This document shows, piece after piece, positions 16,741 to 36,694 of a stretch of 64,000 nucleotides of DNA. Position numbers and translations under genes: made by a program. Origin of the DNA: Deltaproteobacteria bacterium. GTDB lineage: Bacteria; SAR324; NAC60-12. Location: positions 7,042 to 71,041 of the forward strand of contig JAYPUA010000007.1 in the NCBI GenBank assembly GCA_038133845.1. Reading direction: 5' to 3'. The notes under the pieces were generated by a model. That model saw only the letters and a list, made by a program, of their open reading frames with translations. It was not told where the DNA came from and made no database searches. Every line of letters begins with the position of its first letter. Position 1 is the first letter of the stretch.

Positions 16741-16749
16741 CCGCTTTCC

Positions 16750-17283: not shown

Positions 17284-17297
17284 GGTGATTCCTATTC

Positions 17298-18776: not shown

Positions 18777-18860
18777 GCTTGCCTTTGTCAAGAGGATTGT
18801 AAATTGACCCAATGTACCAAACCTCTTTGAACTTGGCCACTTTTTTCTGAGATTTGAGTA

Positions 18861-19166: not shown

Positions 19167-19175
19167 CCGCCTTCT

Positions 19176-19376: not shown

Positions 19377-19458
19377 TGACCCTGTCTGTGCAGAAAATGG
19401 TTTTCAAAACTGGGAAAATCGTTTCACGGAATCTGAAAAATCTCAACCGGCAAAGCGG

Positions 19459-19734: not shown

Positions 19735-19868
19735 TTTGGGACTGCTGCTGGTTGCAATGGCCTTTGGGGCAATGGTGGCTCTCGGCCTCTGGGAGCGACG
19801 ACGCTCTCAGAAAAAATTCAGGGAAGCGTTACAAAAGTTGAGGGAAGTCGATGCGGTGACGGAGCCTC

Positions 19869-20126
19869 CTAATTCCGGCGCAGCTCCATCTTCAGAGACT
19901 TGAGTTCCTCAAGCATTTTGGCTCGCTTGGGAGGGACCGGTTGCTCTTGGGCCTGAGCCTGCCTCAACAGGGCTGCCACTGCCTTGGGTCGCGACAGGTT
20001 GTGCTGTCGCGCAAAGTCATCCAGTTGCTCCAGGACTGATTGAGGCAACCCCAGCAGGATCTTCTTGACGGGCTCCTGATACTCCTTTTTTCGTCCTGCT
20101 CCTTCTCTGTAGCCACCTCGAGGCAT
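19869..20126 (-). CDS. Ribbon-helix-helix (CopG/Arc-like) DNA-binding protein
   Basis: MPRGGYREGAGRKK... followed by KKILLGLPQSVLEQLDDFARQHNLSRPKAVAALL, a beta-strand-helix-helix pattern typical of RHH regulators. Start at the internal Met. Confidence 0.5.
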   Translation of the reverse strand: MPRGGYREGAGRKKEYQEPVKKILLGLPQSVLEQLDDFARQHNLSRPKAVAALLRQAQAQEQPVPPKRAKMLEELKSLKMELRRN

Positions 20127-20511
20127 GGATTCCGTACTAAAGAAATTCGGCAAGGTGCCGATAAGCAATACAAGAGGCACCCGGGGTCGTGGGGACCCTA
20201 GTGTCAGCAGATTCACCTTCTTCTGGAGCCCTCCATGAAAAAGACCACTGCAAGCTTCTTGCCGAATCGGCGCCTGGTTCACAGAATTCGCTGCTTCCAC
20301 CGACTCTCTCCGGAAGAGGTCATGGTCCGCAAAGGGTTCTGAAGCATTGGGTTATAGACAACTGAATAAGTATTGTCAATAATCATTCTTCGATCCAAAT
20401 CTGGGAGGCTCAGCATTGAAGAGACCTCCCAGGGGATCCCCCGATTGTTTTACGCTTGAGTAAATCGAAACCGGCCCTAGACTGCGTTTGCATGAATGAC
20501 GCTTCTAGAAT

Positions 20512-20808
20512 TTGGCTATGGAATCGAACCCCCACTTTGATGATCGCTACGATCGCCTCATCTCGATGAGCGAACGCCTCATCTCCATCAGTGAGCACCT
20601 CGTCCAGCAACATTCACGCGACCAGGAAGAGCGCCAGGAAATGCTGGAGTTGGTCCGGAATCTGGAGCATCTCCACTCACCAAAACCTTCGGCTTCTCCC
20701 GGGCTCGAAAGAGAGCCGGCACTGGAGGACTCTCTGCCCAGCGGAGCGGAATTTCTTCGAGAAAGTCCTCGCCCCAGACTCTCCCGTCTCTTTCTTCAGG
20801 GCGGCTGA
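20512..20808 (+). CDS. Hypothetical small protein in the serA upstream region (doubtful)
   Basis: 98 aa ORF with an internal RLISMSE/RLISISE repeat. It sits inside a 780 bp region with no strong gene, so it could be non-coding. Confidence 0.2.
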   Translation: MAMESNPHFDDRYDRLISMSERLISISEHLVQQHSRDQEERQEMLELVRNLEHLHSPKPSASPGLEREPALEDSLPSGAEFLRESPRPRLSRLFLQGG

Positions 20809-20910
20809 AGCCTTGTTCCTCAGGGTTTCTCTTCAGATTCAAACTTTATTCTCCCCCTGTTGTGTGGGATATTCAGAGTTTCTCCTAAACTCCCCCTTCA
20901 CGAACTGTCT

Positions 20911-22491
20911 ATGTACAAGGTACTGATCACAGGAGCGATCCACGAGTGTGGCTTGGAGCTCTTGAGGCAGGAGCCGGATCTGGAAATTCACTACCTCCCA
21001 GACCGTCCCCATGAAGAGTTGCTCGGGTTGGTAGAACCCTTTCACTGCATCCTCTCCCGCTCAGAGACGGCAATCACCCGAGAGTTGATCGACCGGGCCC
21101 CAAATCTCAAGGTCATCGCACGGGCTGCGGTAGGCATCGGCAACATCGATGTGGCCTATGCTACCGAGAAGGGGGTCCTGGTGTTCAACACTCCCGCGAA
21201 GAACACCAACTCTGCAGCCGAGTTGACCATGGGGCTGCTGCTCAGTGCTGTCCGGAAGATGGTCCCGGCCCACAAGCATATGGAAGATCTACGCTGGGAA
21301 CGCCACACCTTCACCGGGACCGAACTGTTGGGCAAGACCCTCGGAATCATCGGCCTGGGAAACGTCGGACACCGGGTAGCCCGATTTGCCCGAGCCTTTG
21401 ACATGGAGGTCCATGCTTTCGATCCGTACTTGGCGGATGAGGTGTTTGAGCGGCATCAGGCCCGGAAGGCCTCCTGGGAGGAGCTTCTGAGAGAGTCGGA
21501 CGTGATCAGCCTGCATGTGCCGAAGACGCGGGAGACCTCCGGAATGATTGGAGCGGCCGAGATTGAGCAAATGAAGCCCGGCGTGATCCTGATCAATGCA
21601 GCCCGAGGCGGAGTGATTGACGAGGTCGCCCTGCTTGCAGGGTTGAAGTCCGGGAAGGTCTCTGCGGCAGGAGTGGACACCTGGGAGATTGAGCCTCCGC
21701 AGGAGAACCCCTTCCGGGAGCTGCCACAGGTCGTCATGACCCCGCACATCGGCGCCTCAACCGTGGAAGCCCAGGTCCGGATTGCGGAATCCGTGGCCAA
21801 CCAGGTGCCTCGTGCGCTGCGCGGAGAGGTTGTGGACTCGCCGGTCAACATGCCCAACGTTCAGGTGATGAACAACCCGCAGGTCCGGGCCTATGCGGCT
21901 CTGGCTGAGCGGTTGGGGCGCTTTGCCTCCCAGTTTGTCAACTTTGTGCCCCATCAGGTGGAACTCAAGTTCCGGGGGTCTCTGGCTCGGAATGAAGGGT
22001 CCTTGCTGCGCCTGAGCTTCCTCAAAGGCTTCTTGTTGGAGAAGCATGAAAACGTCAGCTACGTCAACGCGGACCAGTGTGCCGAGGCGGCGGGATTGCG
22101 AGTAGAAGAAGTAGGGGACCCGGGCTTCACCGACTACGAGAGCGCGCTCAAGTGCACGCTCAGTGGTCCGGAGGGGCGCTTTCAGATCGGAGGGGTTGTC
22201 TTCAGTGGAGAGCACCCGCGCATTACGCTGGTCAATGAGTTCGTCTGTGAGATCGAACCTGCCGGCACGATTCTGGTGACCACCAACCGGGATCAGCCGG
22301 GCATGGTGGGCGTCATTGGAACCCTGCTTGGAGAGCACCGGGTGAACATCGATCAGTTCGAACTGGCCCGGAATACCCGGGGAGGCGAGGCCATGGCCCT
22401 GATCCGGGTGGATGATGGAATTTCCGAGGAGGTCGTGGAGGAGCTGCGTTGTCGCCCGGGGATTACCTCTGCTCGAAAAATTCAGCTCTGA
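20911..22491 (+). CDS. serA: D-3-phosphoglycerate dehydrogenase, long form with a C-terminal ACT domain
   Basis: Rossmann GIIGLGNVG, catalytic R/E/H of 2-hydroxyacid dehydrogenases, C-terminal ASB/ACT region. 526 aa from the MYKVLITG start. Confidence 0.9.
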   Translation: MYKVLITGAIHECGLELLRQEPDLEIHYLPDRPHEELLGLVEPFHCILSRSETAITRELIDRAPNLKVIARAAVGIGNIDVAYATEKGVLVFNTPAKNTNSAAELTMGLLLSAVRKMVPAHKHMEDLRWERHTFTGTELLGKTLGIIGLGNVGHRVARFARAFDMEVHAFDPYLADEVFERHQARKASWEELLRESDVISLHVPKTRETSGMIGAAEIEQMKPGVILINAARGGVIDEVALLAGLKSGKVSAAGVDTWEIEPPQENPFRELPQVVMTPHIGASTVEAQVRIAESVANQVPRALRGEVVDSPVNMPNVQVMNNPQVRAYAALAERLGRFASQFVNFVPHQVELKFRGSLARNEGSLLRLSFLKGFLLEKHENVSYVNADQCAEAAGLRVEEVGDPGFTDYESALKCTLSGPEGRFQIGGVVFSGEHPRITLVNEFVCEIEPAGTILVTTNRDQPGMVGVIGTLLGEHRVNIDQFELARNTRGGEAMALIRVDDGISEEVVEELRCRPGITSARKIQL

Positions 22492-22520
22492 GGTCGGACG
22501 TGCAGTCTCTTCAACCCTTG

Positions 22521-24446
22521 ATGGATCAGAACTTTCTGGAGTACGCCTCCTACGTGATCAAGGATCGTGCGATTCCAGACATTGGAGATGGCCTCAAGCC
22601 TGTGCAACGGCGCATCCTTCACACCATGTGGAAGATGGACGACGGCAAGTTCAACAAGGTCGCCAACGTGGTGGGAGAGACGATGAAGCTCCACCCGCAC
22701 GGAGACGCCTCAATCGGCTCGGCGCTGGTCGTGATGGCCAACAAGGAGTACTTCATTGAGAAGCAGGGGAACTTCGGGAACCTCTTTACCGGAGACCCGG
22801 CTTCAGCCGCTCGCTACATCGAAGCCCGCCTGACTCCTCTGGCCAAGGAGATCCTCTTCAACCCGGACCTCACGGAGTTCATCGAAAGCTACGACGGCCG
22901 GAACCAGGAGCCGGTGCTCCTGCCCTGCAAGATCCCCGCGACGTTGCTGCTTGGCGCGGAAGGGATCGCGGTGGGAATGTCTACCCGGATCCTGCCTCAC
23001 AACTTCAACGAGGTGCTTGAAGCGCAGATTGCCTGCCTCAATGGCGAGGAGCTGCCTGTGCTATGTCCGGACTTCCTGACCGGAGGAATCCTGGATGCCG
23101 AGCAGTATCAGGATGGAAACGGGAAGATCCGGGTCCGGGCCCGTGTCGAGGTTCAGGATGAGAAGACGCTGGTCATCCGCGATGTCCCCTACGGGGTCAC
23201 GACCGAGAGCCTGATTCAGTCGATTCAGGATGCGGCAAACAAGGGCAAGCTCAAGCTGGCCTCCATCAACGACTACACCACCGAAGAGGTGGCTGTGGAA
23301 CTGCGCGCGATGCGAGGCGTGAAGGCGGAGTCTCTGCTCAAGCCGCTCTATGCCTTCACCCAGTGCGAGGTCTCGGTCTCGATCAACCTGCTGGTCATCC
23401 GGGACAACCAGCCGGTGCTGATGACCGTGACCGAGGTGGTGGAGCACTCTACCAAGCGGCTGCTCACCTTGCTGGAGCTGGAACTCAAGCTGGAGCTGGA
23501 GCAACTGCGACACAAATGGCATCGTGGGCAACTGGAGGTCTACTTTCTTCAGGAGCGACTCTACCAGCTTCTGGAGCAGTGTGACAGCTACGAGGAGGTG
23601 CTTGAGCGCGTCGAAGCCGCCCTGCAGCCCTTGCAGCCAAAGCTTGATCTCCCCATCACGAAAGAAGACTTGGAGGCGCTGCTCTCCATTCCCATCAAGC
23701 GCATCTCGCGGTTTGATCAAAAGCAAGCGGAGGCGAACCTCAAGAAGCTGCAAAAGAGCATCCGGGAGGTCCGCAAGCACCTGCGCGAGCTGAGGCCTTA
23801 TGCCGTGAGCTACCTCCAGGGGCTCAAGGAACGCTACGGTGAGCTGTACCCCCGGCGCACCGAAGTGGAGTCCTTCGAGGAGGTCCGCAAGCGTGATGTC
23901 GCCGAAGCCGTTGAGGTCGGCTGGGACAAGCAGTCCGGCTTCATTGGAACCTCGGTGAAGTCCAACCACACCATTTCCTGCTCCAGCGTCGACAAACTCG
24001 TGCTGTTCCGCAAGGATGGGCGCTATCAGGTGATCAAGGTTCCGGAGAAGCTGTTTGTGGGCAAGGATGTGATGCGCATGGAGTTGCTGGACACCAAGGC
24101 GACCTACAATCTGATTTACGCTGAAGGGGAGAGCCAGGTCTGCTTTGCCAAGCGCTTCCGGGTGGAAAAATTCATCCTGGAAAAGGAGTACCGACTCTTT
24201 ACCAAGGCAAGGGGTGCAAAGATCCTGCACTTGAGTGCAGGCCCGGGAGTGATGCTGGAGGCGCTGTTTGTTCCGACTCCACGGCTCCGGAAGACGCGGG
24301 AGCTGGTGCTGTTCGACAGCCTGCTGGTCAAGGGCGCGCAGGCCCGGGGAAACCGAGTCTCGGACAAACCCATTGACAAGATCCGACAACTGGCTGCTCA
24401 AAACCTCGAATCCCCACAGCTCGGGTTTCCGGACTCTCAGAGCTGA
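22521..24446 (+). CDS. Type IIA topoisomerase subunit A (ParC/GyrA family), short 641 aa form
   Basis: AIPDIGDGLKPVQRRILHTM and HPHGDASIGSALVVMAN motifs. The catalytic Tyr lies in SAARYIEARLT. Only a short C-terminal region follows the coiled-coil, not a full beta-pinwheel. Confidence 0.8.
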   Translation: MDQNFLEYASYVIKDRAIPDIGDGLKPVQRRILHTMWKMDDGKFNKVANVVGETMKLHPHGDASIGSALVVMANKEYFIEKQGNFGNLFTGDPASAARYIEARLTPLAKEILFNPDLTEFIESYDGRNQEPVLLPCKIPATLLLGAEGIAVGMSTRILPHNFNEVLEAQIACLNGEELPVLCPDFLTGGILDAEQYQDGNGKIRVRARVEVQDEKTLVIRDVPYGVTTESLIQSIQDAANKGKLKLASINDYTTEEVAVELRAMRGVKAESLLKPLYAFTQCEVSVSINLLVIRDNQPVLMTVTEVVEHSTKRLLTLLELELKLELEQLRHKWHRGQLEVYFLQERLYQLLEQCDSYEEVLERVEAALQPLQPKLDLPITKEDLEALLSIPIKRISRFDQKQAEANLKKLQKSIREVRKHLRELRPYAVSYLQGLKERYGELYPRRTEVESFEEVRKRDVAEAVEVGWDKQSGFIGTSVKSNHTISCSSVDKLVLFRKDGRYQVIKVPEKLFVGKDVMRMELLDTKATYNLIYAEGESQVCFAKRFRVEKFILEKEYRLFTKARGAKILHLSAGPGVMLEALFVPTPRLRKTRELVLFDSLLVKGAQARGNRVSDKPIDKIRQLAAQNLESPQLGFPDSQS

Positions 24447-24478: not shown

Positions 24479-25306
24479 GTGCTACGTTCAGGCTCTTCCT
24501 TCCAACTGCTTCCGGTCCTTGAAACAGAGGCTCCTCTGATCTCCGACTCGGACCTGACCTTCAGCCTGCAGGCGCTTGGGGTTCCGGAAGGGTCCCCGCT
24601 TTGCCTGGCCAACCAGGAGTTTCCGGATCTGGTCAAGCAGGCCCACCGGATCCAGAAGCGCTCTGGAGCACAGCTCTTCCGCGCCAACACCGCCGGAGCG
24701 TCGCTTTCCGAGCTGGAGCCTTTGGGGTGGGAAGATCGGTGCGAGGCTCTGAACAACTCAGGACGTGCGCTCCTCAAGGAGGCCCTGGACAACCAGGGCA
24801 TCCAGGCTGGGGTAATCCGGGCGATCGCTTCAGAAACTCAGGCCAACCTGCGCGAAGCCGCCTATGGCAACCAGGCCGTGTACCTCTCCGACACGCGTGC
24901 AGACCTGATCTGGCTCCGCGATTTTCCCTCTGTGGCCGAGCTTCGGCTGGCACTGCGTGTCTTGAAGAGAGTGTCTCAGACAGAGATCATCGCGTCCTTG
25001 AAGCCACAGACGTTCTCCGAGGAGGTTCTCCAGGAACTTCCAGAGTTGCTTCGGGTTGGTGCAAACTACCTCGGTCTCCAAGGAGCAGCAGACCATCCGG
25101 AACTGACTTCCAGCTTGAAGGCCCTGGTCGACACAATCGGTGTGGTTGGGATTGAACTGGATGAGAGATCGTCACAACCGGCCCCCTCTGCGGAGTTTGA
25201 GCAGGTGCTGGCCGCCGTCCTGGATCTTGGGGTAGCCTGGGTGGCCCTAGGCGCTCACACGACTCCGGATCACGTCCGATTGGCTCGGAAGCTTCGGGAT
25301 CTCTGA
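24479..25306 (+). CDS. Hypothetical protein (275 aa)
   Basis: ORF with coding-like composition and a GTG start. No confident family assignment. Confidence 0.45.
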   Translation: MLRSGSSFQLLPVLETEAPLISDSDLTFSLQALGVPEGSPLCLANQEFPDLVKQAHRIQKRSGAQLFRANTAGASLSELEPLGWEDRCEALNNSGRALLKEALDNQGIQAGVIRAIASETQANLREAAYGNQAVYLSDTRADLIWLRDFPSVAELRLALRVLKRVSQTEIIASLKPQTFSEEVLQELPELLRVGANYLGLQGAADHPELTSSLKALVDTIGVVGIELDERSSQPAPSAEFEQVLAAVLDLGVAWVALGAHTTPDHVRLARKLRDL

Positions 25307-25421
25307 TTTCCGCTATTTCCTTCCAAAACGCCGGATTTCCGGAGAAAACCGGCTTCCAGTTTTTCAGAAAATTTGATATTATTTTTGCTTTTATCTCTTA
25401 TTCCAGCAAAAAGTAAAAATA

Positions 25422-26825
25422 ATGAACCGCACCAAGATCATCTGCACGATTGGGCCGGCCACAGAGTCCTATGACATGTTGCAGAAGATGGCAGGCGCCG
25501 GAATGAATGTGGCACGCCTGAACATGTCTCATGGAGATCACGAGTGGCATGCTCAGGTCATTCAGCGCATCAAGAGCCTGAACAAGAAGATCCGGACTCC
25601 GATTGCCATCCTGCTCGATACGCAGGGGCCAGAGATCCGGACCGGCAACCTGGCAGAGGATCTCGACCTGCACGAAGGCTCGGTGATCACGATCAACGTG
25701 CGTGGAGAGAGCGACGTGGAGGAGACCTCGATCCACGTGGACTACGACGACCTGATCCGCACCGTGAGCCCCGGAGACAAGATCACCGTGGACAACGGCC
25801 TGATCAACCTTGAGGTGCTGGAGAAGCACGACCGGGAGATGCGCTGCCGGGTTTTGGACGGAGGTGTGCTCAAGAGCAAACGGCACGTCAACCTCCCGGG
25901 AGTCCGGGTCAACCTTCCAGCGATCACCATGAAGGACCGCCGGGATATCCTGTTTGGGCTGGAGTACGATGTGGACTTTATCGCCCTTTCGTTTGTCCGG
26001 GAGGCAAACGACGTGTTGCAGCTCAAGGAGCTGCTTGGAGACAAGTTTGGCAAGGTGAAAGTGATCGCCAAGATCGAGGATCAGGAGGGCGTGAGCAACC
26101 TGGACGAGATCATTCAGGAGGTCCACGGAGTCATGGTGGCCCGAGGAGACCTGGGCGTCGAGATCCCGAACCACACGGTTCCCACGGTGCAGCGGGAGAT
26201 CGTTCGCAAGTGTGCAGAGGCCGGACGTCGGGTGATCGTGGCCACTCACCTGCTGGAGTCGATGATCGAGAACCCGATCCCAACCCGGGCAGAGGTGACA
26301 GATGTGGCAAACGCGATCTACGAGGAGGTGGATGCCGTGATGCTTTCCGGCGAGACGACGGTGGGCAAGTACCCTCTGCGGTGCATCGATCAACTGGTCA
26401 ACATCGCCCAGACTGTGGAGGTCAATCCGGGGTTGCGCTTCGTCAACAACCTCCGACCCGGCTCCGACAAGCAGCAGCTCTCCACCTCCGCGGTCCAATT
26501 GGCCGAGTCTCTGGGCGTGCGTGGGATCGTGGTCATCACCCGTCGGGGCGTGATGGCCGACTACGTCAGCAACTGCCGGCCGGCCAAGAGCTTCATCTAC
26601 GCCTTCACCAACGTCAGCCAGGCACGCCGGACGCTGATGCTCAACCGAGCGCTCCGCTCCTTTAGGATCAACTTCAGCGATGAGCCGGAGAAGACTCTGC
26701 AGACCGCTTTTTCGGTGCTCCGACAGCGCGAAGGGTTCCAGTCCGGAGAGAAGGTCGTCGTGATCTCCGATGTGCTGGCGGGGTCTGGAAGGATCGACGC
26801 TCTCCAGATCCGTCACCTGCCCTGA
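25422..26825 (+). CDS. pyk: Pyruvate kinase
   Basis: MNRTKIICTIGPAT..., and the MVARGDLGVEIP motif. 467 aa. An AT-rich promoter region lies upstream at 25340-25421. Confidence 0.92.
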   Translation: MNRTKIICTIGPATESYDMLQKMAGAGMNVARLNMSHGDHEWHAQVIQRIKSLNKKIRTPIAILLDTQGPEIRTGNLAEDLDLHEGSVITINVRGESDVEETSIHVDYDDLIRTVSPGDKITVDNGLINLEVLEKHDREMRCRVLDGGVLKSKRHVNLPGVRVNLPAITMKDRRDILFGLEYDVDFIALSFVREANDVLQLKELLGDKFGKVKVIAKIEDQEGVSNLDEIIQEVHGVMVARGDLGVEIPNHTVPTVQREIVRKCAEAGRRVIVATHLLESMIENPIPTRAEVTDVANAIYEEVDAVMLSGETTVGKYPLRCIDQLVNIAQTVEVNPGLRFVNNLRPGSDKQQLSTSAVQLAESLGVRGIVVITRRGVMADYVSNCRPAKSFIYAFTNVSQARRTLMLNRALRSFRINFSDEPEKTLQTAFSVLRQREGFQSGEKVVVISDVLAGSGRIDALQIRHLP

Positions 26826-26907
26826 GTTTCTTTCAACACCACACGATCATTGACTTTTCAGGGGGGCAATGGCACTGTGATGGTTCTCCGAAGAGGGCTT
26901 CGCTCGC

Positions 26908-28083
26908 ATGAAGCCCGGCACGCTTTCCCCTGAAGCCTGCTCCTGTTCATCCCCTTTTCACGACCTCGTCTTGGCTCACGACCTCCCCTCGGCATCTTCA
27001 GTCCCTTCCAAAGACGCTCCAACTGAGGCTTCCCAACGTCCGTTCATTCAGGAACTGACACGTCTGGAGCTCAGGCTCTGGATGGAGTCGCAGGGATTTC
27101 CGGCCTATCGTGCGGATCAGGTCTTCGGCTGGGTCTACCAAAAGCGTGTCTCCGGATTTGGAGAGATGGGCAACTTGGGAAAGAAGGTCCAGCAGGCGCT
27201 GGAGCAGAACTTCCGGATGGGCGTTCTGGAAACGGGAGAGGAGCATCGCTCTGAGGACGGCTCCATCAAGTATCGCTTTGTTCTGGAGGATGGTCGGAGC
27301 ATCGAGTCGGTGCTGATGCCCCACACGGATCACTTCACAGTGTGCATCTCCTCTCAGGTCGGGTGCGCCATGGGTTGCGACTTCTGCATGACCGGAACCA
27401 TGGGGCTGATCCGGCACCTCAGCGTGGCCGAGATCGTCATGCAGGTCCTTGCTGCAGGGCAGGGACTTCCGGAAGGCGAGACGATCCGCAACATCGTCTT
27501 CATGGGCATGGGCGAGCCGTTTCACAATTATGAGAACGTGATGCGGGCGCTGGAGGTCTTTACCGACGAGCACGGGCTGAACCTGTCCCAGCGCCGGATC
27601 ACGGTCTCGACCTCCGGGCTGCTGCCTGCCATCCGGCGCTTTGGAAGGGAGCGCGTCAAGGCGAACCTGGCGGTTTCACTCAACGGGGTCACCGACGCCG
27701 TCCGCTCGCAGCTGATGCCGGTCAACCGGGCCTACAACCTGGAGAAGCTGGTTCAGGCCTGCAAGGAGTATCCGCTGGAGTCTCGCAAGCGCATTACCTT
27801 CGAGTACATCCTGATGAAGGGCGTCACCGACTCGCTGGAAGATGCGAAGGCCCTGATCAAGCTCTTGCACGGGCTCAAGTTCAAGGTCAACCTGATCCCG
27901 TTCAACGAGTCTCCCAAGAGCAAGTACCGCAAGCCGGAATGGGAGCAGGTCCGTGCCTTTCAGCAGTACCTGCTGGACCGGGGCGTGGTCGCTACGGTGC
28001 GCATTTCCAAGGGGCAGGACATCCAGGGAGCCTGCGGTCAACTGGTCGCTCGGAAGCCACAGCCGGAAGCCCTTCCAGCCTGA
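26908..28083 (+). CDS. rlmN: 23S rRNA (adenine2503-C2)-methyltransferase RlmN (radical SAM), with an N-terminal extension
   Basis: CxxxCxxC radical SAM cluster motif ([16 protein letters not shown]) and conserved RlmN N-region ([11 protein letters not shown]). About 40 extra N-terminal residues if the ATG at 26908 is used. Confidence 0.85.
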
Positions 28084-28115
28084 ATTCTCTCTACCTCGAA
28101 ACCAACATCGACCTC

Positions 28116-28736
28116 ATGCGAAAACCTGTCAAGATTGGGATCGGAGGACCGGTCGGCTCGGGCAAAACGGCCCTGCTGGACCGGCTCTGCAAGGCCATGC
28201 GGGATCAGTATCAGCTGGCCGTGGTGACGAACGACATCTTCACCCGCGAAGACATGGAGTTCCTGATCCGCAGCCAGGCCCTCCCGGAAGAGCGGATTCG
28301 AGGGGTGGAGACCGGAGGGTGCCCGCACACGGCGATCCGCGAGGACGCCTCCTTGAACTTCGAGGCGATCGAGAACCTGGTTGCAGATTTTCCCCAGCTG
28401 GACCTGGTGTTTGTGGAAAGCGGTGGCGACAACCTGGCCGCAAGCTTCAGCCCGGAATTGGTAGACGCCTCGATCTATGTCATTGACGTCTCGGGAGGAG
28501 ACAAGGTCCCGCGCAAGGGCGGTCCGGGAGTGACCCGCTCCGACCTGCTGGTGATCAACAAGATCGACCTCGCTCCGCAGGTCGGAGCCAGTCTTGAGGT
28601 GATGGACCGAGACGCCCGCAAGATGCGAGGAGAGCGCCCGTTCATCTTCAGCAATCTCAAGTCCGGAGAGGGGCTTGAAGTCATCATCCGCTGGATTCAG
28701 ACTCAGCTCCTCTTTGAAGAGGCTCCCGCCGGGTGA
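28116..28736 (+). CDS. ureG: Urease accessory GTPase UreG
   Basis: P-loop GGPVGSGKT, VTNDIFTxED, GGCPH metal-binding CPH motif, NKIDL. 206 aa. Confidence 0.85.
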
Positions 28737-29578
28737 GCGCGTTTTCTCCGGAGACGGTGGGGCGACAGGCTCGTTTGGAGCTGGTCTTCAAGCGCCAGGG
28801 GTCCCGGACTATCCTGGAGCGAGCCCACGTGGAGTCTCCTCTGAAGGTCACCCGCCCTTACTGGCCGGATGAGTCTGGACAAGCCCACCTGATCTTGATG
28901 AGCCCTGCCCCTGGAATTTTCGGAGGGGATGAGTGGGACCTGCAGGTTTCCGTGAAATCCGGGGCCTCGGCTCACATCACACCGCAAGGGGCGCTTCGCG
29001 TCCACCCCGACGTTCAGGCACAGACCGCACGGCAGAGGGTACACCTCAGGGTTGAGTCCGGGGGCACGCTCTTTTGGGAAATGGAGCCGGTGATCCCGTT
29101 TCGTGGCTCAAGCCTCCAACAGACCATTCATCTTGAACTGCAGGACGGGGCTCGGCTGTTTTTTTGGGACGGGTTCTGTGCCGGGCGGGTGCAATCCGGT
29201 GAGCGCTGGGAGTTTGCCCGACTGGAGCAGGATCTGCGGCTGGAGCGTGACGGCCAGCTGCTGCTGCTCGACCGCTTCCTCCTCGAGCCCCAGTCCCGTG
29301 AGGTGCCGCTTCATGACATGAACGAGTGCTTCACGGCGCTCTTGCATCCAGCCTCTTCCCTGAGCCAGCTGGATCCGGAAGGCCTCAGTCCCCGGCTTCA
29401 GTCTGCCGCATCCCGGTGGGGACTTGATGAACCAGCTCCGGGGCTGTTCCTGCTTCGAGGGCTGGTGCAGGAGGGCGTGACCCGTCGCCGAGACCAGGCG
29501 CAGTGGCGTGAGTTTCTCATTGACCAATGGGCCAACCCTCTGTCGACCCCAACTGCTTCAGGGGCCTCACAGAATTGA
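28733..29578 (+). CDS. ureD: Urease accessory protein UreD/UreH
   Basis: GTG start overlapping the ureG stop (GTGA). UreD-family pattern ([35 protein letters not shown]). Confidence 0.75.
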
Positions 29579-29648
29579 TCCGGATTTGAACTGGATTGTT
29601 TTCGTGTAAGAAATTATACCTGAGGGTCAAGCATCTTAGAGGTCCTGA

Positions 29649-30704
29649 ATGCCCGACATACTCCACTCCTTTGAAGACTACCTCCGGCAACCGCTGGAAG
29701 ACCGAATCCCGAACTACAACCGAGAGGGGCGGCTCTACCACGTGATGGTCGCCCAGCAGTTCAGCGAGCAGCTGCTGGAGGAGCTTTTTGATGCTGCGGA
29801 TCTGGTCAAGAGCCTGACTCGACGTCCCAACGGGATCGACTACCTGAAATCCCTGCTACGGCACCGTCGGGCGATGCTGTATTTCACTCAGCCCTCGACC
29901 CGGACCTTCCTCTCGTTTTTGACAGCGTGCCAGATGATCGGCGTGGATACGGGAGAGGTGCGGGATGCTGCACTGTCCTCGGAATACAAGGGGGAGAGCC
30001 AGGAGGACGGGGTCCGAGTCTTCAGCAGCTACTTTGACGCGATCGTGATGCGCGACCCGAAGCCCGGGTTTTGTGAGTACATGGCCTACTTGTTGGACCG
30101 GACGGGGCGGAGCGTTCCCATTCTCAACGGAGGGAGCGGGAAAGATCAGCATCCAACCCAAGCGCTGCTGGATCTGTACACCATGCACCGCTCCTTCCAA
30201 GAGCGTGGAGGGATTCGGGGAAAGCGGTATGCGTTTGTTGGGGACCTCCTCCGGGGAAGAGCCGTGCGCTCGGCCGTGTACCTGCTCAGTCAGTTTCAGA
30301 ACATCGAACTCTTCTTTGTGGCTCCCGAAGCATTCCAGATTGCTCCGGATCTGGAACAGCACCTCCGTGAGCGGAGTATCCCGGTTCACAAGTGCGACCA
30401 GATCCATCAGGTGCTCCCGGAGGTGGATTGTGTGTACATGACCCGCGTTCAGGATGAGTACGACCTCTCGGGAGAGTCTCAACTGATCGACCCTCGAAGC
30501 TACAGCCTGAACCGAGAGAACATCCGGATGATGCGTCCGGATGCGATCATTCTCCATCCGCTTCCACGCCGTGACGAGATTCATCCGGAGGTGGACTCCG
30601 ACCCGCGTGCGATGTATTGGCGCCAGTTGCGAAACGGTGTCTACATTCGTGCTGCCTTGATGCTGTACGTCTTCGGACGTTCGCACAAGCTGGCAGAATA
30701 CTGA
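29649..30704 (+). CDS. pyrB: Aspartate carbamoyltransferase catalytic chain (PyrB-like) with an N-terminal extension
   Basis: STRTF (variant of STRTR), MRDP, HPTQALLD, MTRVQ, and a C-terminal LHPLPRRDEI...NGVYIRAALM that closely parallels E. coli PyrB. Confidence 0.8.
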   Translation: MPDILHSFEDYLRQPLEDRIPNYNREGRLYHVMVAQQFSEQLLEELFDAADLVKSLTRRPNGIDYLKSLLRHRRAMLYFTQPSTRTFLSFLTACQMIGVDTGEVRDAALSSEYKGESQEDGVRVFSSYFDAIVMRDPKPGFCEYMAYLLDRTGRSVPILNGGSGKDQHPTQALLDLYTMHRSFQERGGIRGKRYAFVGDLLRGRAVRSAVYLLSQFQNIELFFVAPEAFQIAPDLEQHLRERSIPVHKCDQIHQVLPEVDCVYMTRVQDEYDLSGESQLIDPRSYSLNRENIRMMRPDAIILHPLPRRDEIHPEVDSDPRAMYWRQLRNGVYIRAALMLYVFGRSHKLAEY

Positions 30705-30736
30705 ACTCCAAGGCCTGAGCCCGGAATCGGATTGCC

Positions 30737-32236
30737 ATGAAGCCCCCTCTTTCCACTCCTGCTGCCCTCGTTCTCGTCTACGGACGTCCTCCCTTGGTCT
30801 TTGCTGGGATGTTGCTGGCCCTCTCTGTGATGATTCGCCCCAGCCCAGGAGTCTACACTGCAGGGGTGATGTGCTTGTTCATCTCCATGAGCTTTGATCT
30901 GGTCGATGGTTGGTTCTCTGCACGATTTCGTCCCCAGGCCAAGTTGGCACATCTTGCAGACCGGATCATGGACAAGGCGGTGTACTCGATTGTCTTTCCT
31001 CTGGTAGCCGTGGGGATGATGTGGCGCTATCAGCACCTCCCGGAAGGATCCAACGAGCGTCTGGAACTGCTGCATGTCCTGCTGGTTCTGGTGCTGGCCA
31101 TCACCGTGCTGATGCGGGACAACCTGGCGCACTTCCTGAGAAACTTTGCGCTTCGCAAAGGGGAGGAGGAGGAGATGAAGGAGGTGACTCGGCTGCGTAC
31201 TGTGGTGGCTGCTCCGGTGGGAGCGATTCTCTACGCCTACGCCTTCTACTTCCCCAGCTTTCCGGAAGACTCCACATACCAGTGGCTCGAGTCGTTGGGG
31301 CAGATGCCCACGAATCAGCTCATCTACCTGGAGGTGCTGTTCCTGATCATCAACTTTGGCTCCATTGCCGGATACATGCGCAAGTACGGAACCGCATGCT
31401 TGGATGATCTCTGCCTGGGAGACGTGGTGCTGCGCCGTCGGATTCTGGCGATCTTCCCCAACGCGCTGACCGTGATGAACGCGATGATGGGGCTGCTGGC
31501 GGTCTTCTTTGCCAGCCAGTCCCGGATGCACGAAGCCTTTCTCCTGCTCATTGGTGCGGCGTTCTTTGACAAGCTGGACGGCGCTCTGGCCCGCAAGCTC
31601 GGGCTGACAACCCCCCTTCCTTCTGCAAAGCCCAAGAAGCATCACGTGACCTTTGGAGGGATTCTGGACGACATCTCTGACGGAGTGAGCTTCTGCATTG
31701 CTCCGGCGCTGATGTTCTACATGCTCCTTGACCAGATTTCGGATCCTGAGGTGCAGGCCTTGCCTTACGGCTGGGTGGCGCTGGCCTATGCAGTTCTGGG
31801 AATTGTTCGTTTGATCTACTTCACGCTCGACCGAGCCAGCATCCCTGGCTTCTTCAAGGGGTTTCCCACCCCGGCGGCCGCGCTGCTGGTTGCCGGACCG
31901 TTCATCATGCTCGGGCAGGCGGCTGCAGAGCAGTCGGACCTGACGCTCTTCTGGGCCCAGTTCTGCCTCTGGAACATGGTGCTCACAGCAATTCTGATGA
32001 ATCTTTACCCGGTTCGCTATCTGCACGTCGGTCGCCTGATGAGCCGCAACAAGTGGGTCGGTCGGGTCACCTTGCTGATTGTGCTGACCTTTGTCTTCAC
32101 TCCCTACTTTGGCTATGCCGGGTTTGGCTACCTGATGCTCTATGCGCTCTCCCCCCTTTACACCTGGCGCATCAGCCCGGAAGTGGCGGCCCGGGAGGAA
32201 AGCAACGCTCGATCTTCGGAAAGGCTGAGCGCATGA
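30737..32236 (+). CDS. Polytopic membrane protein with two CDP-alcohol phosphatidyltransferase-like regions
   Basis: First region [10 protein letters not shown]...DRIMD is degenerate. Second region [12 protein letters not shown]...[10 protein letters not shown] matches the CDP-OH-PT signature with an insertion. Many TM helices. The antisense 534 aa ORF is rejected. Confidence 0.7.
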
Positions 32237-33270
32237 GCGAAGCATACGAAGATTCCGAGGAGCGTCTGGTCACCCCGGAGGAGCAGCCGGAGGAGCAGTA
32301 TGACCTCTCACTGCGCCCGGAGCGTCTGCGGGACTACATCGGCCAGTCCGAGGTCAAGGACAACCTCAAGGTCTTCATTGAGGCAGCCAAAAAGCGTCGG
32401 CAGCCGCTGGACCATGTTCTGCTGAGCGGACCTCCCGGGTTGGGAAAAACCACTCTGGCGAACATCTTCGCCCGGGAGATGGAGGCTCAGATTCGCTCCA
32501 CTTCCGGGCCGGTGATCGAGCGTCAGGGGGACCTGGCAGCGATTCTGACCAACCTGGAAGCCGGAACCATCCTGTTTATCGATGAGATCCACCGCATGAA
32601 CCGTGTGGTGGAAGAGGTCCTCTACAGCGCCATGGAGGATTTTACCCTGGACATCATCATCGGTCAGGGGCCAGCCGCCCGAACGGTCAAGCTCGACATC
32701 CCGCACTTCACCCTGGTAGGAGCCACGACCCGGGCCGGATTGCTCTCTTCTCCGCTCCGAGATCGCTTCGGAATTCAGTGCCGTTTGAATTACTATACTC
32801 CGGAAGAGCTTCAGGTGATCATCCTCCGCTCGGCCGCCATTCTGGAGATCGAAATTGTGGAAGAGGCCGCCATGGAGCTGGCCCGGCGTTCCCGGGGAAC
32901 TCCCCGAATTGCAAACCGGATGCTCCGGCGATGCCGTGACTTTGCCGACCTGGAGACCTCTGGGGTCATCACGCAATCGCTGGTGAACAGCAGCCTGGCT
33001 CGGCTGGGTGTGGACCTGGAGGGGCTGGACAACATGGATCGACACATCCTGATGACCATCATTGAAAAATTCAGCGGAGGCCCGGTGGGTTTGGGAACCC
33101 TGGCCGCGGCCGTCTCGGAGGAGAAAGACACGCTGGAGGATGTCTATGAGCCCTACCTGATGCTGCAGGGCTTCCTGCAACGTACCCCACGCGGACGCAC
33201 CGTCACTCAGCGAGCCTATACCCACTTGGGCCTGTCGGAACAGGGGACTCCGCAGATTCCGCTGTTCTGA
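32233..33270 (+). CDS. ruvB: Holliday junction branch-migration ATPase RuvB
   Basis: [12 protein letters not shown], Walker [10 protein letters not shown], Walker B FIDEIHR, sensor and arginine-finger regions. ATGA overlap with the upstream gene. Confidence 0.92.
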
Positions 33271-33300
33271 TCTTCTGAAAAACTTCCCCCTTCGAGGTCC

Positions 33301-34008
33301 ATGCGACTTTCCCTGCTGATGGAGTCTCAGCCTGATGACGTGACCTGTGGGCCGACTAGCCTGCATGCCGTCTACCGCTTCCTGGGAGACCCCATTTCCT
33401 TGCCCTCTCTGATTCAGCGCATCAATCAGCTTGAAGACGGAGGGACCTTGGCGGTGCTTCTGGGGATCGATGCGCTGCGGCAAGGGTATCAGGCGACTTT
33501 GCACTCCTTCAACCTCCAGCTCTTTGATCCAAGCTGGTCGATCCTCTCTGCCAGTGAACTGGCTGAGAAGCTCAAGCTGCAGCTGCACTTCAAGAAAGGC
33601 AAGAAGTTTACCTTGGCCACGGAGGCGTACCGGGAGTTTGTCCTCAGTGGAGGACAGCTTCGGCTGGAGCCCTTGAGCCGAGGACTTCTCCAGAAGTACC
33701 TCTCCCGGAAGCTCCCGATCCTGACGGGGCTCAGTGCGACCTATCTCTACCAGTCAAAACGCGAGTACACCAACGCCCGGGATCAGTCTGTGTTCGACGA
33801 CTTGAGAGGGGAGCCGATGGGGCATTTTGTGGTGATCCACGGAATGGAGCAAAACACGGTCTTTGTGGCAGACCCCTACCACGCGAACCCCCTCTCTCAG
33901 GACAACTACTACGAGGTCGATGTGGAGCAACTGATGCAGGCCATCATGCTTGGTGTCATGACCTACGATGGCAACCTCTTGATTCTTTCCTCTTCCCCGG
34001 AGACCTGA
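33301..34008 (+). CDS. Papain-fold / peptidase C39-like (BtrH_N-like) cysteine peptidase or transferase domain protein
   Basis: Candidate catalytic Cys in DDVTCGPTSLHAV, His in GHFVVIHG followed by VFVADPYH (the C39 / papain-like C...H...D arrangement). 235 aa. Its stop overlaps the next gene's start (TGATG). Confidence 0.55.
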   Translation: MRLSLLMESQPDDVTCGPTSLHAVYRFLGDPISLPSLIQRINQLEDGGTLAVLLGIDALRQGYQATLHSFNLQLFDPSWSILSASELAEKLKLQLHFKKGKKFTLATEAYREFVLSGGQLRLEPLSRGLLQKYLSRKLPILTGLSATYLYQSKREYTNARDQSVFDDLRGEPMGHFVVIHGMEQNTVFVADPYHANPLSQDNYYEVDVEQLMQAIMLGVMTYDGNLLILSSSPET

Positions 34009-35486
34009 TGCGCAAACTGTTGGTCGTGGATCAACCCGACCATTTCAAACTTCCCATCGAAGGAGTGGGCGTGGTTTCGGCCAAGGCCTACCTGACCCAG
34101 CCCGAGTTCAGTCAGCTCCCCAACCTGCGAGTGTTCAACCTGTGCAACGACTACCGCTACCAGTCCAAGGGATACTACGTGTCGCTGCTGGCAGAGGCAA
34201 GGGGACACAACCCGATTCCCAGCGTGAAGAATCTGCAAGACCTGCAGGCTCCCACGCTGTTTCGTAGCGTTAGCGACGACCTCGACACGCTGGTGCAAAA
34301 GTCCTTGCGCAAGCTCAAATCGGAAGAGTTTACGCTGAGCATCTACTTCGGACGAAACCTCGCCAAGCAGTATGAGCGGCTCTGTATGGAGCTGCACCGC
34401 CTGTTCCCGATGCCCTTCCTCCGGGTTCGGTTCATCAAGCAGAAGAAGCGCCTGCACACGGACTCTGAAACCTGGACCTTGCAGCAGGTCAAGGCCATCG
34501 CGTTCCGGGACATCCCGGAGTCTCACCTGGACCTGGTCATGGAGGCGGCCCAACGCTACTTCGGGCGCAAGCGCTACCAGGCGGCCAAGCCCACTCAGTA
34601 TGAGTACGATCTGGCAATTCTGGTGAATCGAGAAGAAAAGGCGGCCCCTTCGGATGCGGAGGCGCTGGAGAAGTTTGCAGAGGCGGCCACACGCCTCAAA
34701 GCCAGCGTGACCTTCGTTGACCGAGACGACTTGCACCGGATTGCCGAGTTCGACGCCTTGCTGATTCGTGAAACCACCAACGTCAACCACCACACCTACC
34801 GCTTCGCCCGCCGTGCTCAGGCAGAGGGACTTGCGGTGATTGACGACCCGGACTCCATCCTCCGTTGCACCAACAAGGTCTACCTGGCCGAGTTGCTCCA
34901 GCAGGGAAAGGTTCCGATTCCCAAGGGGATGGTGGTCCATTCGGAAAATCGTCAGACCGTCGGGGCCATTCTTGGATTTCCCTGTGTCCTCAAGCTCCCG
35001 GACTCTTCCTTCTCGCAAGGTGTGATCAAGGTTCGCGACGAGGCCGAACTGAAGGTTCACCTGCAGAAGATGTTCGCTCAGTCGGAGCTGGTTCTGGCGC
35101 AGGAGTACATGCCCACGGATTTCGATTGGCGGATCGGGGTGCTTGATGGGAAGCCGCTGTTTGCCTGCAAGTACTTCATGGCTCGCGGGCATTGGCAGAT
35201 CTACAACTGGGGGAGCCAGGATTCTGATGGACAGAGCGGGGAGTTCGAGACCATTGCTGTGGAGGATGCTCCAGACTATGTGGTCCGGACCGCGCTCAAG
35301 GCTGCTCGCCTGATTGGAAATGGGCTCTATGGCGTGGACCTGAAGGAGGTCCGAGGCAAGGCCTATGTCGTGGAAGTGAACGACAACCCGAACATCGACC
35401 ACCGCGTGGAGGATCTGATACTTGGAGACGAGATCTACCGCCGGGTTCTGAGCCACCTGTTTCAACAGATTGAGCAAAAATCATGA
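34008..35486 (+). CDS. RimK-type ATP-grasp ligase with a roughly 200 aa N-terminal RLAN-like domain
   Basis: C-terminal 290 aa has ATP-grasp motifs (FPCVLKLPDSSFSQGV, GLYGVDLKEVRGKAYVVEVNDNP). A long conserved-looking N-terminal extension is consistent with the RimK-like ATP-grasp N-terminal domain architecture. Confidence 0.8.
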   Translation: MRKLLVVDQPDHFKLPIEGVGVVSAKAYLTQPEFSQLPNLRVFNLCNDYRYQSKGYYVSLLAEARGHNPIPSVKNLQDLQAPTLFRSVSDDLDTLVQKSLRKLKSEEFTLSIYFGRNLAKQYERLCMELHRLFPMPFLRVRFIKQKKRLHTDSETWTLQQVKAIAFRDIPESHLDLVMEAAQRYFGRKRYQAAKPTQYEYDLAILVNREEKAAPSDAEALEKFAEAATRLKASVTFVDRDDLHRIAEFDALLIRETTNVNHHTYRFARRAQAEGLAVIDDPDSILRCTNKVYLAELLQQGKVPIPKGMVVHSENRQTVGAILGFPCVLKLPDSSFSQGVIKVRDEAELKVHLQKMFAQSELVLAQEYMPTDFDWRIGVLDGKPLFACKYFMARGHWQIYNWGSQDSDGQSGEFETIAVEDAPDYVVRTALKAARLIGNGLYGVDLKEVRGKAYVVEVNDNPNIDHRVEDLILGDEIYRRVLSHLFQQIEQKS

Positions 35487-36694
35487 GTGAGTATTCGCTG
35501 TTCGAGGTCTTTGGCGTGGAGATGGAGTTCATGGTGGTGGACCGGAACTCACTGAACGTCCGCCCGGTGGTGGATCGCCTGATTGAAGCCAAGCTCGGGG
35601 CTCCGGAATCGGATGTGGAGAACGGGGTGATCGACTGGTCGAACGAGCTGGTCAATCACGTGGTTGAACTGAAGTACCACGAACCCTACGCCTCCCTCGC
35701 CTTGGGAGCTGATTTTCATCAAAACGTTCAGGAGATCAATCAGCGTCTGGAGAGCCTGGACGCGATGCTCCTGCCTACCGGAGCCCATCCGTGGATGGAT
35801 CCAAACACAGAGACCCAGTTGTGGCCCCACGAACACAGCCAGATCTATCGCCTTTACAACCGCATCTTCGACTGCCGCGGGCACGGCTGGTCCAACCTCC
35901 AGTCGACTCACCTGAACCTGCCGTTCTCCGGAGACGAGGAGTTTGGCAAGCTGCACGCGGCGATTCGGGTCATCCTGCCGCTCCTGCCGGCGCTTTCCGC
36001 ATCCACGCCCTTTCTAGATGGACGCGCCACCGGAGTTCTGGACAGTCGATTGGATGTATACCGAACCAACCAAAAGCGCTTTCCGGTAATCACCGGGCTG
36101 GTGGTTCCAGAGCCGGTCTTTACCAAGGCTGACTATCATCGTCAGATCTTTGACCCGATCCGGGAGGTGATTGCCCCATACGATGAGGAGCGCATCCTTG
36201 ATCAGCACTTCCTCAACTCCCGAGGAGCGATTGCCCGTTTTGACCGGGGAGCGATCGAGATCCGGGTGCTGGACCTGCAGGAGTGCCCACAGGTAGACCT
36301 CGCGATCCTGGAAGCAACGGTCCGGGTTCTACGGAAGCTGGTGGCTCAGGACGACCTGATGGAGCGTATCCGGGCCTTCCCTACGGCACGGCTGGCGGAC
36401 CTGCTCCTACGCGTGATCGAGTCCGGGCGTCAGGCGAGTGTGGAGTGGCCAGAGCTGAACGAGGTGCTTGGCGTCGAAGCCTCCGCGACCACTGTCGGGG
36501 CGCTTTGGGAGGGAGCCCTGCGCGACGAGCCCTTTTCTCCGGAGGTGAGCTCCTGCCTGAGTCGGCTACAGGAACACGGATCGCTCTCAGAGCGAATTCT
36601 GCGCAGGCTTCCTCCAGATCCGCCGCGTGAGGCCCTGGTTGAGGTCTACCGCGAACTCGCAGCCTGCTTGCAACGAAACGAGATGCTGTCATGA
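35483..36694 (+). CDS. GCS2 / YbdK-family carboxylate-amine ligase (glutamate-cysteine ligase family 2)
   Basis: MEFMVVDRNS... N-terminus and overall pattern parallel E. coli YbdK (GIELEMQVV...). 403 aa. ATGA overlaps on both sides. Confidence 0.8.
   Translation: MSEYSLFEVFGVEMEFMVVDRNSLNVRPVVDRLIEAKLGAPESDVENGVIDWSNELVNHVVELKYHEPYASLALGADFHQNVQEINQRLESLDAMLLPTGAHPWMDPNTETQLWPHEHSQIYRLYNRIFDCRGHGWSNLQSTHLNLPFSGDEEFGKLHAAIRVILPLLPALSASTPFLDGRATGVLDSRLDVYRTNQKRFPVITGLVVPEPVFTKADYHRQIFDPIREVIAPYDEERILDQHFLNSRGAIARFDRGAIEIRVLDLQECPQVDLAILEATVRVLRKLVAQDDLMERIRAFPTARLADLLLRVIESGRQASVEWPELNEVLGVEASATTVGALWEGALRDEPFSPEVSSCLSRLQEHGSLSERILRRLPPDPPREALVEVYRELAACLQRNEMLS

Follow-up and report, generated by a model that had tools for sequence, protein, structure and literature searches.

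The ureG-ureD pair in the window (the whole 64-kb stretch of DNA that was analysed, from an uncultured, non-marine, high-GC SAR324-clade bacterium) is very probably the relocated 3' end of an ordinary split SAR324 urease operon, the rest of which lies elsewhere in the genome. The first-pass annotation had described the pair as an orphan, to be explained either by scattered urease genes or by UreG and UreD serving a different metallocentre. At the genome level "orphan" is wrong, because the scattered-genes alternative proved right and the other-metallocentre alternative has no support. The pair is ordinary because a ureABCEF locus, without exactly ureG and ureD, is located elsewhere in the genome (contig JBMUDO010000013.1 of a conspecific MAG).

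The ureG-ureD pair and its neighbours

The region consists of the following features.

26908..28083, + strand: rlmN, the upstream neighbour (TIGR00048), its stop codon being the putative left edge of the ureGD insertion
28084..28115, + strand: rlmN-ureG spacer of 32 nt, without a promoter-like site (sequence, promoter scan)
28116..28736, + strand: ureG, predicted urease nickel-delivery GTPase, 206 aa (TIGR00101, solved-UreG matches)
28146..28169, + strand: P-loop GPVGSGKT, UreG residues 11-18 (translation; aligned with the H. pylori UreG P-loop, 4HI0_E)
28320..28328, + strand: Cys69-Pro70-His71 metal-binding motif of UreG (aligned with H. pylori UreG in 4HI0)
28733..28736, + strand: GTGA, shared by the ureD start (GTG) and the ureG stop (TGA) (sequence)
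28733..29578, + strand: ureD (ureH), predicted urease maturation scaffold, 281 aa, GTG start (PF01774, solved-UreD matches)
29583..29604, + strand: candidate remnant of the ancestral rlmN-pyrB spacer (its 5' part), directly past the ureD stop; possible right insertion edge
29649..30704, + strand: pyrB, SAR324-type aspartate carbamoyltransferase catalytic chain (PF02729 and PF00185, TIGR00670)
29895..29909, + strand: S83-T-R-T-F87 motif of PyrB (orthologue alignment)

The gene pair, the two UreG motifs and the overlap are present as first annotated. Judged by profile and structure matches, the product of 28116-28736 is a bona fide UreG. It scores 337.2 bits against the curated equivalog model TIGR00101 (cutoff 204.2), clearly higher than with the HypB/CobW models (80.7 bits for the HypB model TIGR00073, under its cutoff of 121.2), and matches the solved UreG chains 4HI0_E (H. 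pylori) and 5XKT_A (K. pneumoniae) with E = 2e-86 and 9e-86, respectively. With the UreG encoded in an intact ureABCEFGD operon of a sister genome (L006) it shares 93% identity. Its membership in the urease system is indicated by the adjoining ureD and by ureABCEF on the other contig of the conspecific MAG GCA_049459615.1.

The product of 28733-29578 can likewise be assigned as a bona fide UreD. Against PF01774 it reaches 145.4 bits (cutoff 27, E = 3e-42), with profile positions 1-153 of 201 covered, and it matches the solved UreD/UreH chains 8HCN_D (E = 1.2e-21) and 3SF5_B (E = 1.1e-15). The C-terminal third is too diverged for Pfam or PDB alignment, and full-length alignment is obtained with SAR324 UreDs: the identity is 52% over 258 aa to the UreD of L006, 48% to that of L009, and 40% to that of L012. 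The L006 protein, to which the window UreD is orthologous over its full length, is encoded within a complete urease operon. L006 and L012, both canonical operons, have a 4-nt ureG/ureD overlap as well, in the form ATGA, so the translational coupling of the pair is inherited. An antisense ORF within ureD (29108-29527, minus strand), favoured by GC3-based ORF picking, was dismissed as coding because the plus-strand frame has the strong UreD match.

The neighbours of ureGD in the window are housekeeping genes. The identity of rlmN, which ends 32 nt before ureG, was confirmed by TIGR00048 (405 bits, cutoff 290), and that of the PyrB-type gene downstream by Pfam and TIGR00670. The reported lack of ureA, B, C, E and F in the 64 kb also holds: tblastn queries with urease proteins from the related operons L006, L012 and L009 found none (no E value better than 0.03 with the proteins of the closest relative), and among 47 ORFs of the window scanned with Pfam, none belongs to a family of ureases, nickel transporters or other nickel enzymes. 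Neither Rfam nor tRNA scanning gave a match in the window, and a DnaA-box scan for a replication origin showed no enrichment.

No plus-strand site was found in a promoter scan of 25200-33400, and around ureGD neither promoter-like sites (1 vs 1.9 expected) nor terminator-like sites (7 vs 5.5 expected) rise above chance. Probably ureG is read through from rlmN, and ureGD would then be co-transcribed with it. That ureGD, relocated to 32 nt past rlmN and with no promoter detected, is expressed constitutively along with the housekeeping genes, uncoupled from a nitrogen- or urea-regulated ureABCEF, is improbable. Such expression, if true, could be a regulatory innovation that has the nickel chaperone complex pre-made, or could let UreG/UreD moonlight for another nickel client. 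No observation requires this reading.

PyrB passes TIGR00670 marginally (237.6 bits, cutoff 236.95). Both OTCace domains are present (PF02729, E = 2e-30; PF00185, E = 1e-25), and the protein matches the aspartate carbamoyltransferase 6YW9_A (Arabidopsis PYRB) with E = 2e-55. The motifs that align with 6YW9 (STRT, MR, HPTQ, GR.VRS, TRVQ, HPLPR) are those of carbamoyl-phosphate and aspartate binding, the sole deviation being F instead of R after STRT. This STRTF motif and an N-terminal extension of ~30 aa had been pointed out in the first-pass annotation, and both are there (OTCace_N begins at residue 31). The F is found in 24/24 SAR324-type PyrB orthologues covering the site (one further sequence has a base-call X); these orthologues are 50-86% identical to the window PyrB and all carry STRTF, while in more distant PyrBs the residue is R, Q, S or L. 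The extension is visible in the 23 SAR324-type PyrBs whose match reaches the N-terminus. From these alignments, both features are best described as a trait of SAR324-type PyrB. The suggested search for ureGD-pyrB adjacency in relatives returned 0/24 SAR324-type pyrB loci with ureG or ureD in the flanks. Since the relatives' PyrBs have STRTF and the extension with no ureGD nearby, the adjacency is incidental, as had been supposed, and a functional link between PyrB and UreGD was dismissed; pyrB is a neighbour outside the urease system.

The ureABCEF locus and the ancestral operon

Both parts of the urease gene set are found in the NCBI MAG GCA_049459615.1. Contig JBMUDO010000002.1 (L101) carries PK-rlmN-ureG-ureD-pyrB (proteins MGA1597498-501), the same locus as in the window, with 99.64% nucleotide identity over 8350 nt. 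Contig JBMUDO010000013.1 carries dioxygenase-Bmp-ureA-ureB-ureC-ureE-ureF (ureABCEF locus, MGA1597818-824), without exactly ureG and ureD; 28 nt past the locus lies a convergent RND pump, and no ureG or ureD is present. The arrangement of ureABCEF followed by the RND pump occurs in 16 independent contigs, namely JBMUDO010000013.1 and 15 further metagenomic contigs, gathered by the UreF cluster P0044/P0162. These contigs contain what was named at the outset as the finding that would make this an ordinary split locus: a urease operon located elsewhere and missing only ureG and ureD.

The two loci occur together in JGI samples 3300063924, 3300063996 and 3300064000, and in SRR26337514. The tetranucleotide correlation between one contig with the ureABCEF locus (L082) and the window is 0.978 (0.972 for the non-urease flanks alone), which is at the level of the self-correlation of the window (0.94-0.98) and above that of the sister genomes (0.92). 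The assignment of rlmN-ureG-ureD-pyrB and ureABCEF to one genome is based on MAG binning, their co-occurrence in samples, their composition, and the way their gene contents complement each other.

In the sister genome GCA_038150265.1 the operon is intact, with the order DIOX-Bmp-ureABCEFGD (L006, contig JAYOTF010000001.1). In the same genome (L013), and in a second relative (L033), rlmN lies directly beside pyrB with no ure genes between. By comparison with these closest relatives, the ancestral state is an intact ureABCEFGD operon and an rlmN gene adjoining pyrB. The proteins of both loci diverge from the L006 operon alike: UreA 93%, UreB 80%, UreC 94%, UreE 65% and UreF 60% identity for L082, and UreG 93% and UreD 52% for the window. 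In the urease literature the structural subunits and UreG are conserved and UreD, UreE and UreF are variable (PMC6737895); the divergence of both loci follows this pattern, and the match supports the split-operon explanation. Horizontal transfer from a distant donor was dismissed in view of the 93% identity of UreG to the sister-genome operon copy, and is also disfavoured by the best UreD matches, which fall within the same clade.

A trace of the junction may be retained. The 22-nt segment directly past the ureD stop, GATTTGAACTGGATTGTTTTCG, is identical at 17/22 positions to GATTTGGGCTGGACTGTTCCGG, which L013 and L033 have immediately past the stop of rlmN. The match is short, and is no more than suggestive of a spacer remnant at the right end of the inserted ureGD.

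The ancestral SAR324 operon had the order dioxygenase-Bmp-ureA-B-C-E-F-G-D, with ureG-ureD as its 3' end. The two genes would have moved as one translationally coupled block of 1.46 kb to a position just past the rlmN stop, upstream of pyrB, by translocation or by duplication followed by loss. The donor locus, ureABCEF, now placed against the convergent RND efflux pump, would have stayed elsewhere in the same genome. Jointly, the two loci would encode a complete urease system, from which urease activity is presumed. The standard mechanism is expected, in which UreD would bind apo-urease, (UreABC)3, and recruit UreF, followed by the GTPase UreG, which would take Ni from UreE via its Cys-Pro-His site; GTP hydrolysis would power insertion of the nickel at the UreC active site with its carbamylated lysine.

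Intactness of the genes and alternative readings

None of the seven ure genes is disrupted in the population variants. Full-length ureG and ureD, with no stops or frameshifts, are found in 8 independent assemblies, with 4 synonymous and 0 nonsynonymous changes in ureG and 5 synonymous and 5 nonsynonymous changes in ureD (8 variants). The ureA, B, C, E and F genes are intact in 14 variants, with mostly synonymous change (11 synonymous and 1 nonsynonymous in ureC). An apparent premature stop in ureE is a change inside the stop codon itself, all 14 ureE copies being intact (152 aa). Calls of a 90-aa ureE in some contigs reflect the start choice of the gene caller.

UreD may be under somewhat relaxed constraint, given its 52% identity to the sister UreD and a 5/5 ratio that reflects few changes. 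The same strong divergence, and the fact that half of the population changes in UreD are nonsynonymous, would fit ureGD as non-functional leftovers of a urease operon under loss. We consider such decay unlikely in the face of the uninterrupted reading frames in all 8 assemblies, the absence of nonsynonymous change in ureG, and the intact, mostly synonymously changing ureABCEF; moreover, UreE (65%) and UreF (60%) are similarly divergent, which is usual for such accessory proteins (PMC6737895).

Still less probable is a genome devoid of urease in which UreG and UreD deliver nickel or another metal elsewhere, possibly linked to the carbamoyltransferase. The window by itself would suggest it, with its housekeeping genes around ureGD and no urease structural gene in 64 kb; however, the same MAG, samples, and compositional class contain a urease operon from which precisely these two genes are missing, UreG shares 93% identity with its counterpart from a canonical operon, neither a further nickel enzyme nor a nickel transporter is encoded in the window, and the adjacency to PyrB is missing in 24/24 relatives. 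This possibility is already largely refuted. An assembly or binning artefact (a chimeric rlmN-ureG-ureD-pyrB junction, or a ureABCEF contig from another organism) is the least credible explanation: the data are all metagenomic and several Logan contigs end within ureG, but such breaks are expected in any highly conserved gene that has k-mers in common with other organisms, rlmN-pyrB is spanned in three independent assemblies (L088, L089, L101) with 99.6% identity to the window, and the flanks of L082 are closer to the window in composition than the sister genomes are.

The split-operon explanation would make this a recent, cleanly reconstructible operon split in a SAR324 lineage, with the ancestral and derived states both at hand, usable as a small worked example of how an operon splits; the relevance beyond annotation is little. 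A lone ureG-ureD pair on a contig, which is frequent in MAGs, is no evidence of a urease-independent function before the remaining genome or the population has been checked.

Comparison with known urease systems

At the protein level, the window UreG aligns end to end (E = 2e-86) with that of the H. pylori UreH-UreF-UreG complex (4HI0), and the P-loop, CPH, ESGGDNL, and NKID motifs are conserved between the two. The window UreD aligns over about 180-190 residues with the UreD/UreH structures (8HCN, K. pneumoniae UreD; 3SF5_B).

Split urease gene sets are known from cyanobacteria: Anabaena PCC 7120 has ureDABC plus ureEFG, and in Synechocystis PCC 6803 the ure genes are fully scattered (PMC6737895), with ureG shown to be required for growth on urea in the work cited there (PMC5991728). 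As in the window species, a complete urease system is distributed over at least two unlinked loci; the window species differs in its phylum and in the breakpoint (ureF/ureG), which leaves a G-D pair. Accessory genes are likewise detached from ureABC in the stand-alone ureF-ureG-ureD units of related metagenomic lineages (L009-L011, L087), which have a divergent gene and a spacer of about 280 nt upstream and a UreG 92% identical to that of the window, but in these units the breakpoint is upstream of ureF and not of ureG.

The closest counterpart, the canonical SAR324 operon L006, has the same gene families, the G-then-D order, and the 4-nt overlap, and carries dioxygenase-Bmp upstream of ureA, as does the ureABCEF locus of the window species (identities of 93% for UreG, 94% for UreC, and 93% for UreA). 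Unlike L006, the operon of the window species is cut between ureF and ureG, with ureGD placed after rlmN and ureF against the RND pump.

The ureG-ureD pair in the window

The gene content proposed in the first-pass annotation, a ureG and a ureD gene sharing a GTGA overlap between rlmN and a PyrB-type neighbour, is borne out by the ORF map and the family scans:

26908-28083, rlmN, ending 32 nt upstream of ureG
28116-28736, ureG, 206 aa (TIGR00101, 337 bits; cutoff 204)
28733-29578, ureD, 281 aa, GTG start (Pfam UreD, 145 bits; cutoff 27)
29649-30704, gene of a PyrB-type carbamoyltransferase, starting 70 nt downstream of ureD

The UreG protein carries a P-loop (G11-PVGSGK-T18) and the Cys69-Pro70-His71 motif, scores under the cutoff of the HypB model, and aligns end to end with UreG of H. 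pylori (4HI0_E, E = 2e-86) and of K. pneumoniae (5XKT_A). UreD matches the solved UreD/UreH chains 8HCN_D, 3SF5_B and 8HC1_C, and in GTGA its start overlaps the ureG stop. A minus-strand ORF of 139 aa antisense to ureD (29108-29527; GC3 0.77 vs 0.70 for ureD) misled the composition-based ORF picker; in all likelihood it is a shadow ORF that encodes no protein.

The absence of ureA, ureB, ureC, ureE and ureF from the 64 kb was confirmed, as tblastn with these proteins from three related operons gave nothing better than E = 0.03. The Pfam scans of 47 window ORFs detected neither a nickel transporter nor another nickel enzyme, only housekeeping functions (among them ndk, der, gyrB, recF, dnaN, serA, a topoisomerase A subunit, pyk, ruvB, DAHP synthase, clpB and pntAB).

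The region 15239-20850, beside the minus-strand dnaN-recF-gyrB genes, is sparsely coding and of lower GC (0.545-0.565), and the cumulative GC skew of the window reaches its minimum at about 14-16 kb; this region may be a replication origin. Matches to the DnaA-box consensus are not enriched (6 vs 4.8 expected), and no dnaA is adjacent. A lone FliN-like ORF is found at 18861-19166. The gyrase/topoisomerase IV A-subunit homologue at 22449-24446 (about 640-665 aa) is short for GyrA or ParC, with a Pfam match that stops at residue 447 and no adjoining B-subunit gene. At 33301-40095, a conserved co-directional cluster with partly overlapping stops and starts encodes a C39-like peptidase (235 aa), a RimK-type ATP-grasp protein with an RLAN domain (492 aa), a GCS2 carboxylate-amine ligase (403 aa), and a protein of 1134 aa whose only match, a weak one, is to GlnD-UTase. 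It looks like a putative peptide ligation or modification module.

Origin of the pair and the rlmN-pyrB site

The best homologues of the window UreD (52%, 48% and 40% identity) occupy the 3' ends of urease operons. On contig 1 of the sister genome GCA_038150265.1 (locus L006), urt transporter genes, a dioxygenase gene and Bmp accompany ureA-B-C-E-F-G-D, and the window proteins are 93% (UreG) and 52% (UreD, over 258 aa) identical to their counterparts in this operon. L006 and L012, both canonical operons, also have a 4-nt ureG/ureD overlap, here ATGA. The homology and the common overlap mark the pair as the vertically inherited tail of the SAR324 clade's own urease operon rather than a foreign or specialised paralogue.

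The closest relatives, found by a PyrB scan of species-representative genomes, are MAGs of the SAR324 cluster (Candidatus Lambdaproteobacteria), the nearest two PyrBs being those of GCA_038150265.1 (L013, 86% identical) and of an uncultured-bacterium bin (L033, 85%). The order methyltransferase-pyk-rlmN-pyrB-CDP-alcohol phosphatidyltransferase-ruvB is common to these two and the window, with proteins 80-92% identical, but in the two relatives pyrB comes directly after rlmN, some 70 nt downstream and without intervening ure genes. No UreG or UreD match was obtained in the fetched flanks of 24 SAR324-type pyrB loci (0/24), so the ureG-ureD block was inserted only in the lineage of the window, and the adjacency to pyrB is incidental, as had been guessed.

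Directly 3' of the ureD stop, GATTTGAACTGGATTGTTTTCG (29583-29604) agrees at 17 of 22 positions with the sequence that both sister genomes have immediately after their rlmN stop. The match is short and only suggestive, but it would place the entry of the block at the rlmN stop codon, with the old rlmN-pyrB spacer left downstream of ureD. The rlmN-ureG spacer contains no promoter-like site, and terminator-like matches are at chance level; in the simplest reading, ureG-ureD would be co-transcribed with rlmN.

The window PyrB narrowly passes the ATCase equivalog (237.6 bits; cutoff 236.95). Its substrate-binding motifs are conserved in alignments with ATCases of solved structure (Arabidopsis 6YW9, E = 2e-55; human CAD; archaeal and E. 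coli enzymes). The phenylalanine after STRT is found in every SAR324-type orthologue covering the site (50-86% identity); in more distant PyrBs the position is R, Q, S or L. Orthologues with 66-86% identity show the N-terminal extension of roughly 30 residues, and L035, the 50% match, begins only at residue 29. Both features, which had been judged probably incidental, are clade traits unrelated to ureGD, which reached the pyrB site only in the window's species. The SAR324-type PyrB (window 29649-30704; L013-L036) forms a distinct subfamily carrying FTQPSTRTFLSF, with F replacing the usual R after STRT, and the conserved N-terminal extension; members are also present in one Fibrobacteria MAG and in some with the label Desulfobacterales. 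The pyrB-CDPOH-ruvB synteny is seen in 19/19 SAR324 loci (L013-L028, L033, L034). Its middle member in the window (30737-32236) encodes a CDP-alcohol phosphatidyltransferase of 499 aa; the matches fall in two stretches, and the C-terminal half contains a PssA-like domain.

The complementary ureABCEF locus

The remaining urease genes were sought with UreF of GCA_038150265.1. A UreF cluster (P0044/P0162) 60% identical to it sits in the operon dioxygenase-Bmp-ureA-ureB-ureC-ureE-ureF, with a convergent RND efflux pump 28 nt beyond ureF and exactly ureG and ureD missing. This arrangement, represented by locus L082, is present on 16 independent contigs. MAG GCA_049459615.1 holds both parts: ureABCEF on JBMUDO010000013.1 (L091; proteins MGA1597818-824) and pyk-rlmN-ureG-ureD-pyrB-...-ruvB on JBMUDO010000002.1 (L101; MGA1597498-501), the latter 99.64% identical to the window across 8350 nt. 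Both loci are also contained in JGI metagenomes 3300063924, 3300063996 and 3300064000 and in SRR26337514. The tetranucleotide correlation of L082 with the window is 0.978 (0.972 without the urease genes), compared with 0.94-0.98 among window pieces and 0.92 for sister genomes. Relative to the sister operon, the L082 proteins are 93% (UreA), 80% (UreB), 94% (UreC), 65% (UreE) and 60% (UreF) identical, which, together with 93% for UreG and 52% for UreD of the window, reads as one operon; the pattern is the one published for urease proteins, with conserved structural subunits and UreG and variable UreD, UreE and UreF (PMC6737895). Occurrence in the same MAG and the same samples, composition, and matched divergence thus tie the ureABCEF locus to the window's organism. 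With a urease operon lacking only ureG and ureD found elsewhere, the pair is not the orphan it had been called; of the two explanations offered, scattered urease genes or a different metallocentre, the former holds.

The sequence after the ureF stop of L082, TGTCCCCGAGGACATGAT, is similar to the spacer between ureF and ureG in L006, TTTCCCCACGAGTCTGATATG, up to near the ureG start position, where homology ends. The match is again short and only suggestive. At L082 (4015-4736, 10719-15163), urtABCDE, upstream of the operon in L006, are lost, and the urease genes are flanked by RepB-RCR_reg/DCC1-like genes and the convergent RND pump; the urease neighbourhood was thus rearranged on both sides.

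No stop or frameshift interrupts the ureGD locus in eight population variants, whose identity to the window is 99.6-99.9%. Differences in ureG are 4 synonymous and 0 nonsynonymous; ureD has 5 of each, comparable with rlmN (7 and 5) and the gene of the CDP-alcohol transferase (3 and 5). Changes in the ureABCEF locus are mostly synonymous (ureC 11 to 1, Bmp 9 to 0), and ureE is full length in 14/14 copies. Nothing in these small counts suggests decay of the urease genes.

Expected function and known split ureases

Urease maturation has been established mechanistically for Klebsiella and Helicobacter. As the full UreABC-UreD-UreE-UreF-UreG set is encoded, standard maturation is expected on family membership: UreD would dock the apo-urease and recruit UreF, then UreG, the UreG dimer would take nickel from UreE at its Cys-Pro-His site, and GTP hydrolysis would free it toward the carbamylated lysine of UreC.

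Most marine SAR324 genomes reportedly encode urease (PMC8364033), and split or fully scattered urease gene sets are well known, for instance from Anabaena PCC 7120, Synechococcus PCC 7002 and Synechocystis PCC 6803 (PMC6737895). In a related metagenomic lineage (L009-L011, with ureF at 468, 251 and 198, and L087), ureF-ureG-ureD forms a stand-alone unit whose UreG shares 92% identity with that of the window; the same operon is broken there at another point than in the window's species. Upstream of this unit lie a spacer of about 280 nt and a divergently transcribed signal-peptide gene. In view of the documented split ureases and the stand-alone ureFGD units, the ureGD/ureABCEF split adds one more case to an arrangement already known; all that sets it apart is that both the ancestral and the derived state can be seen.
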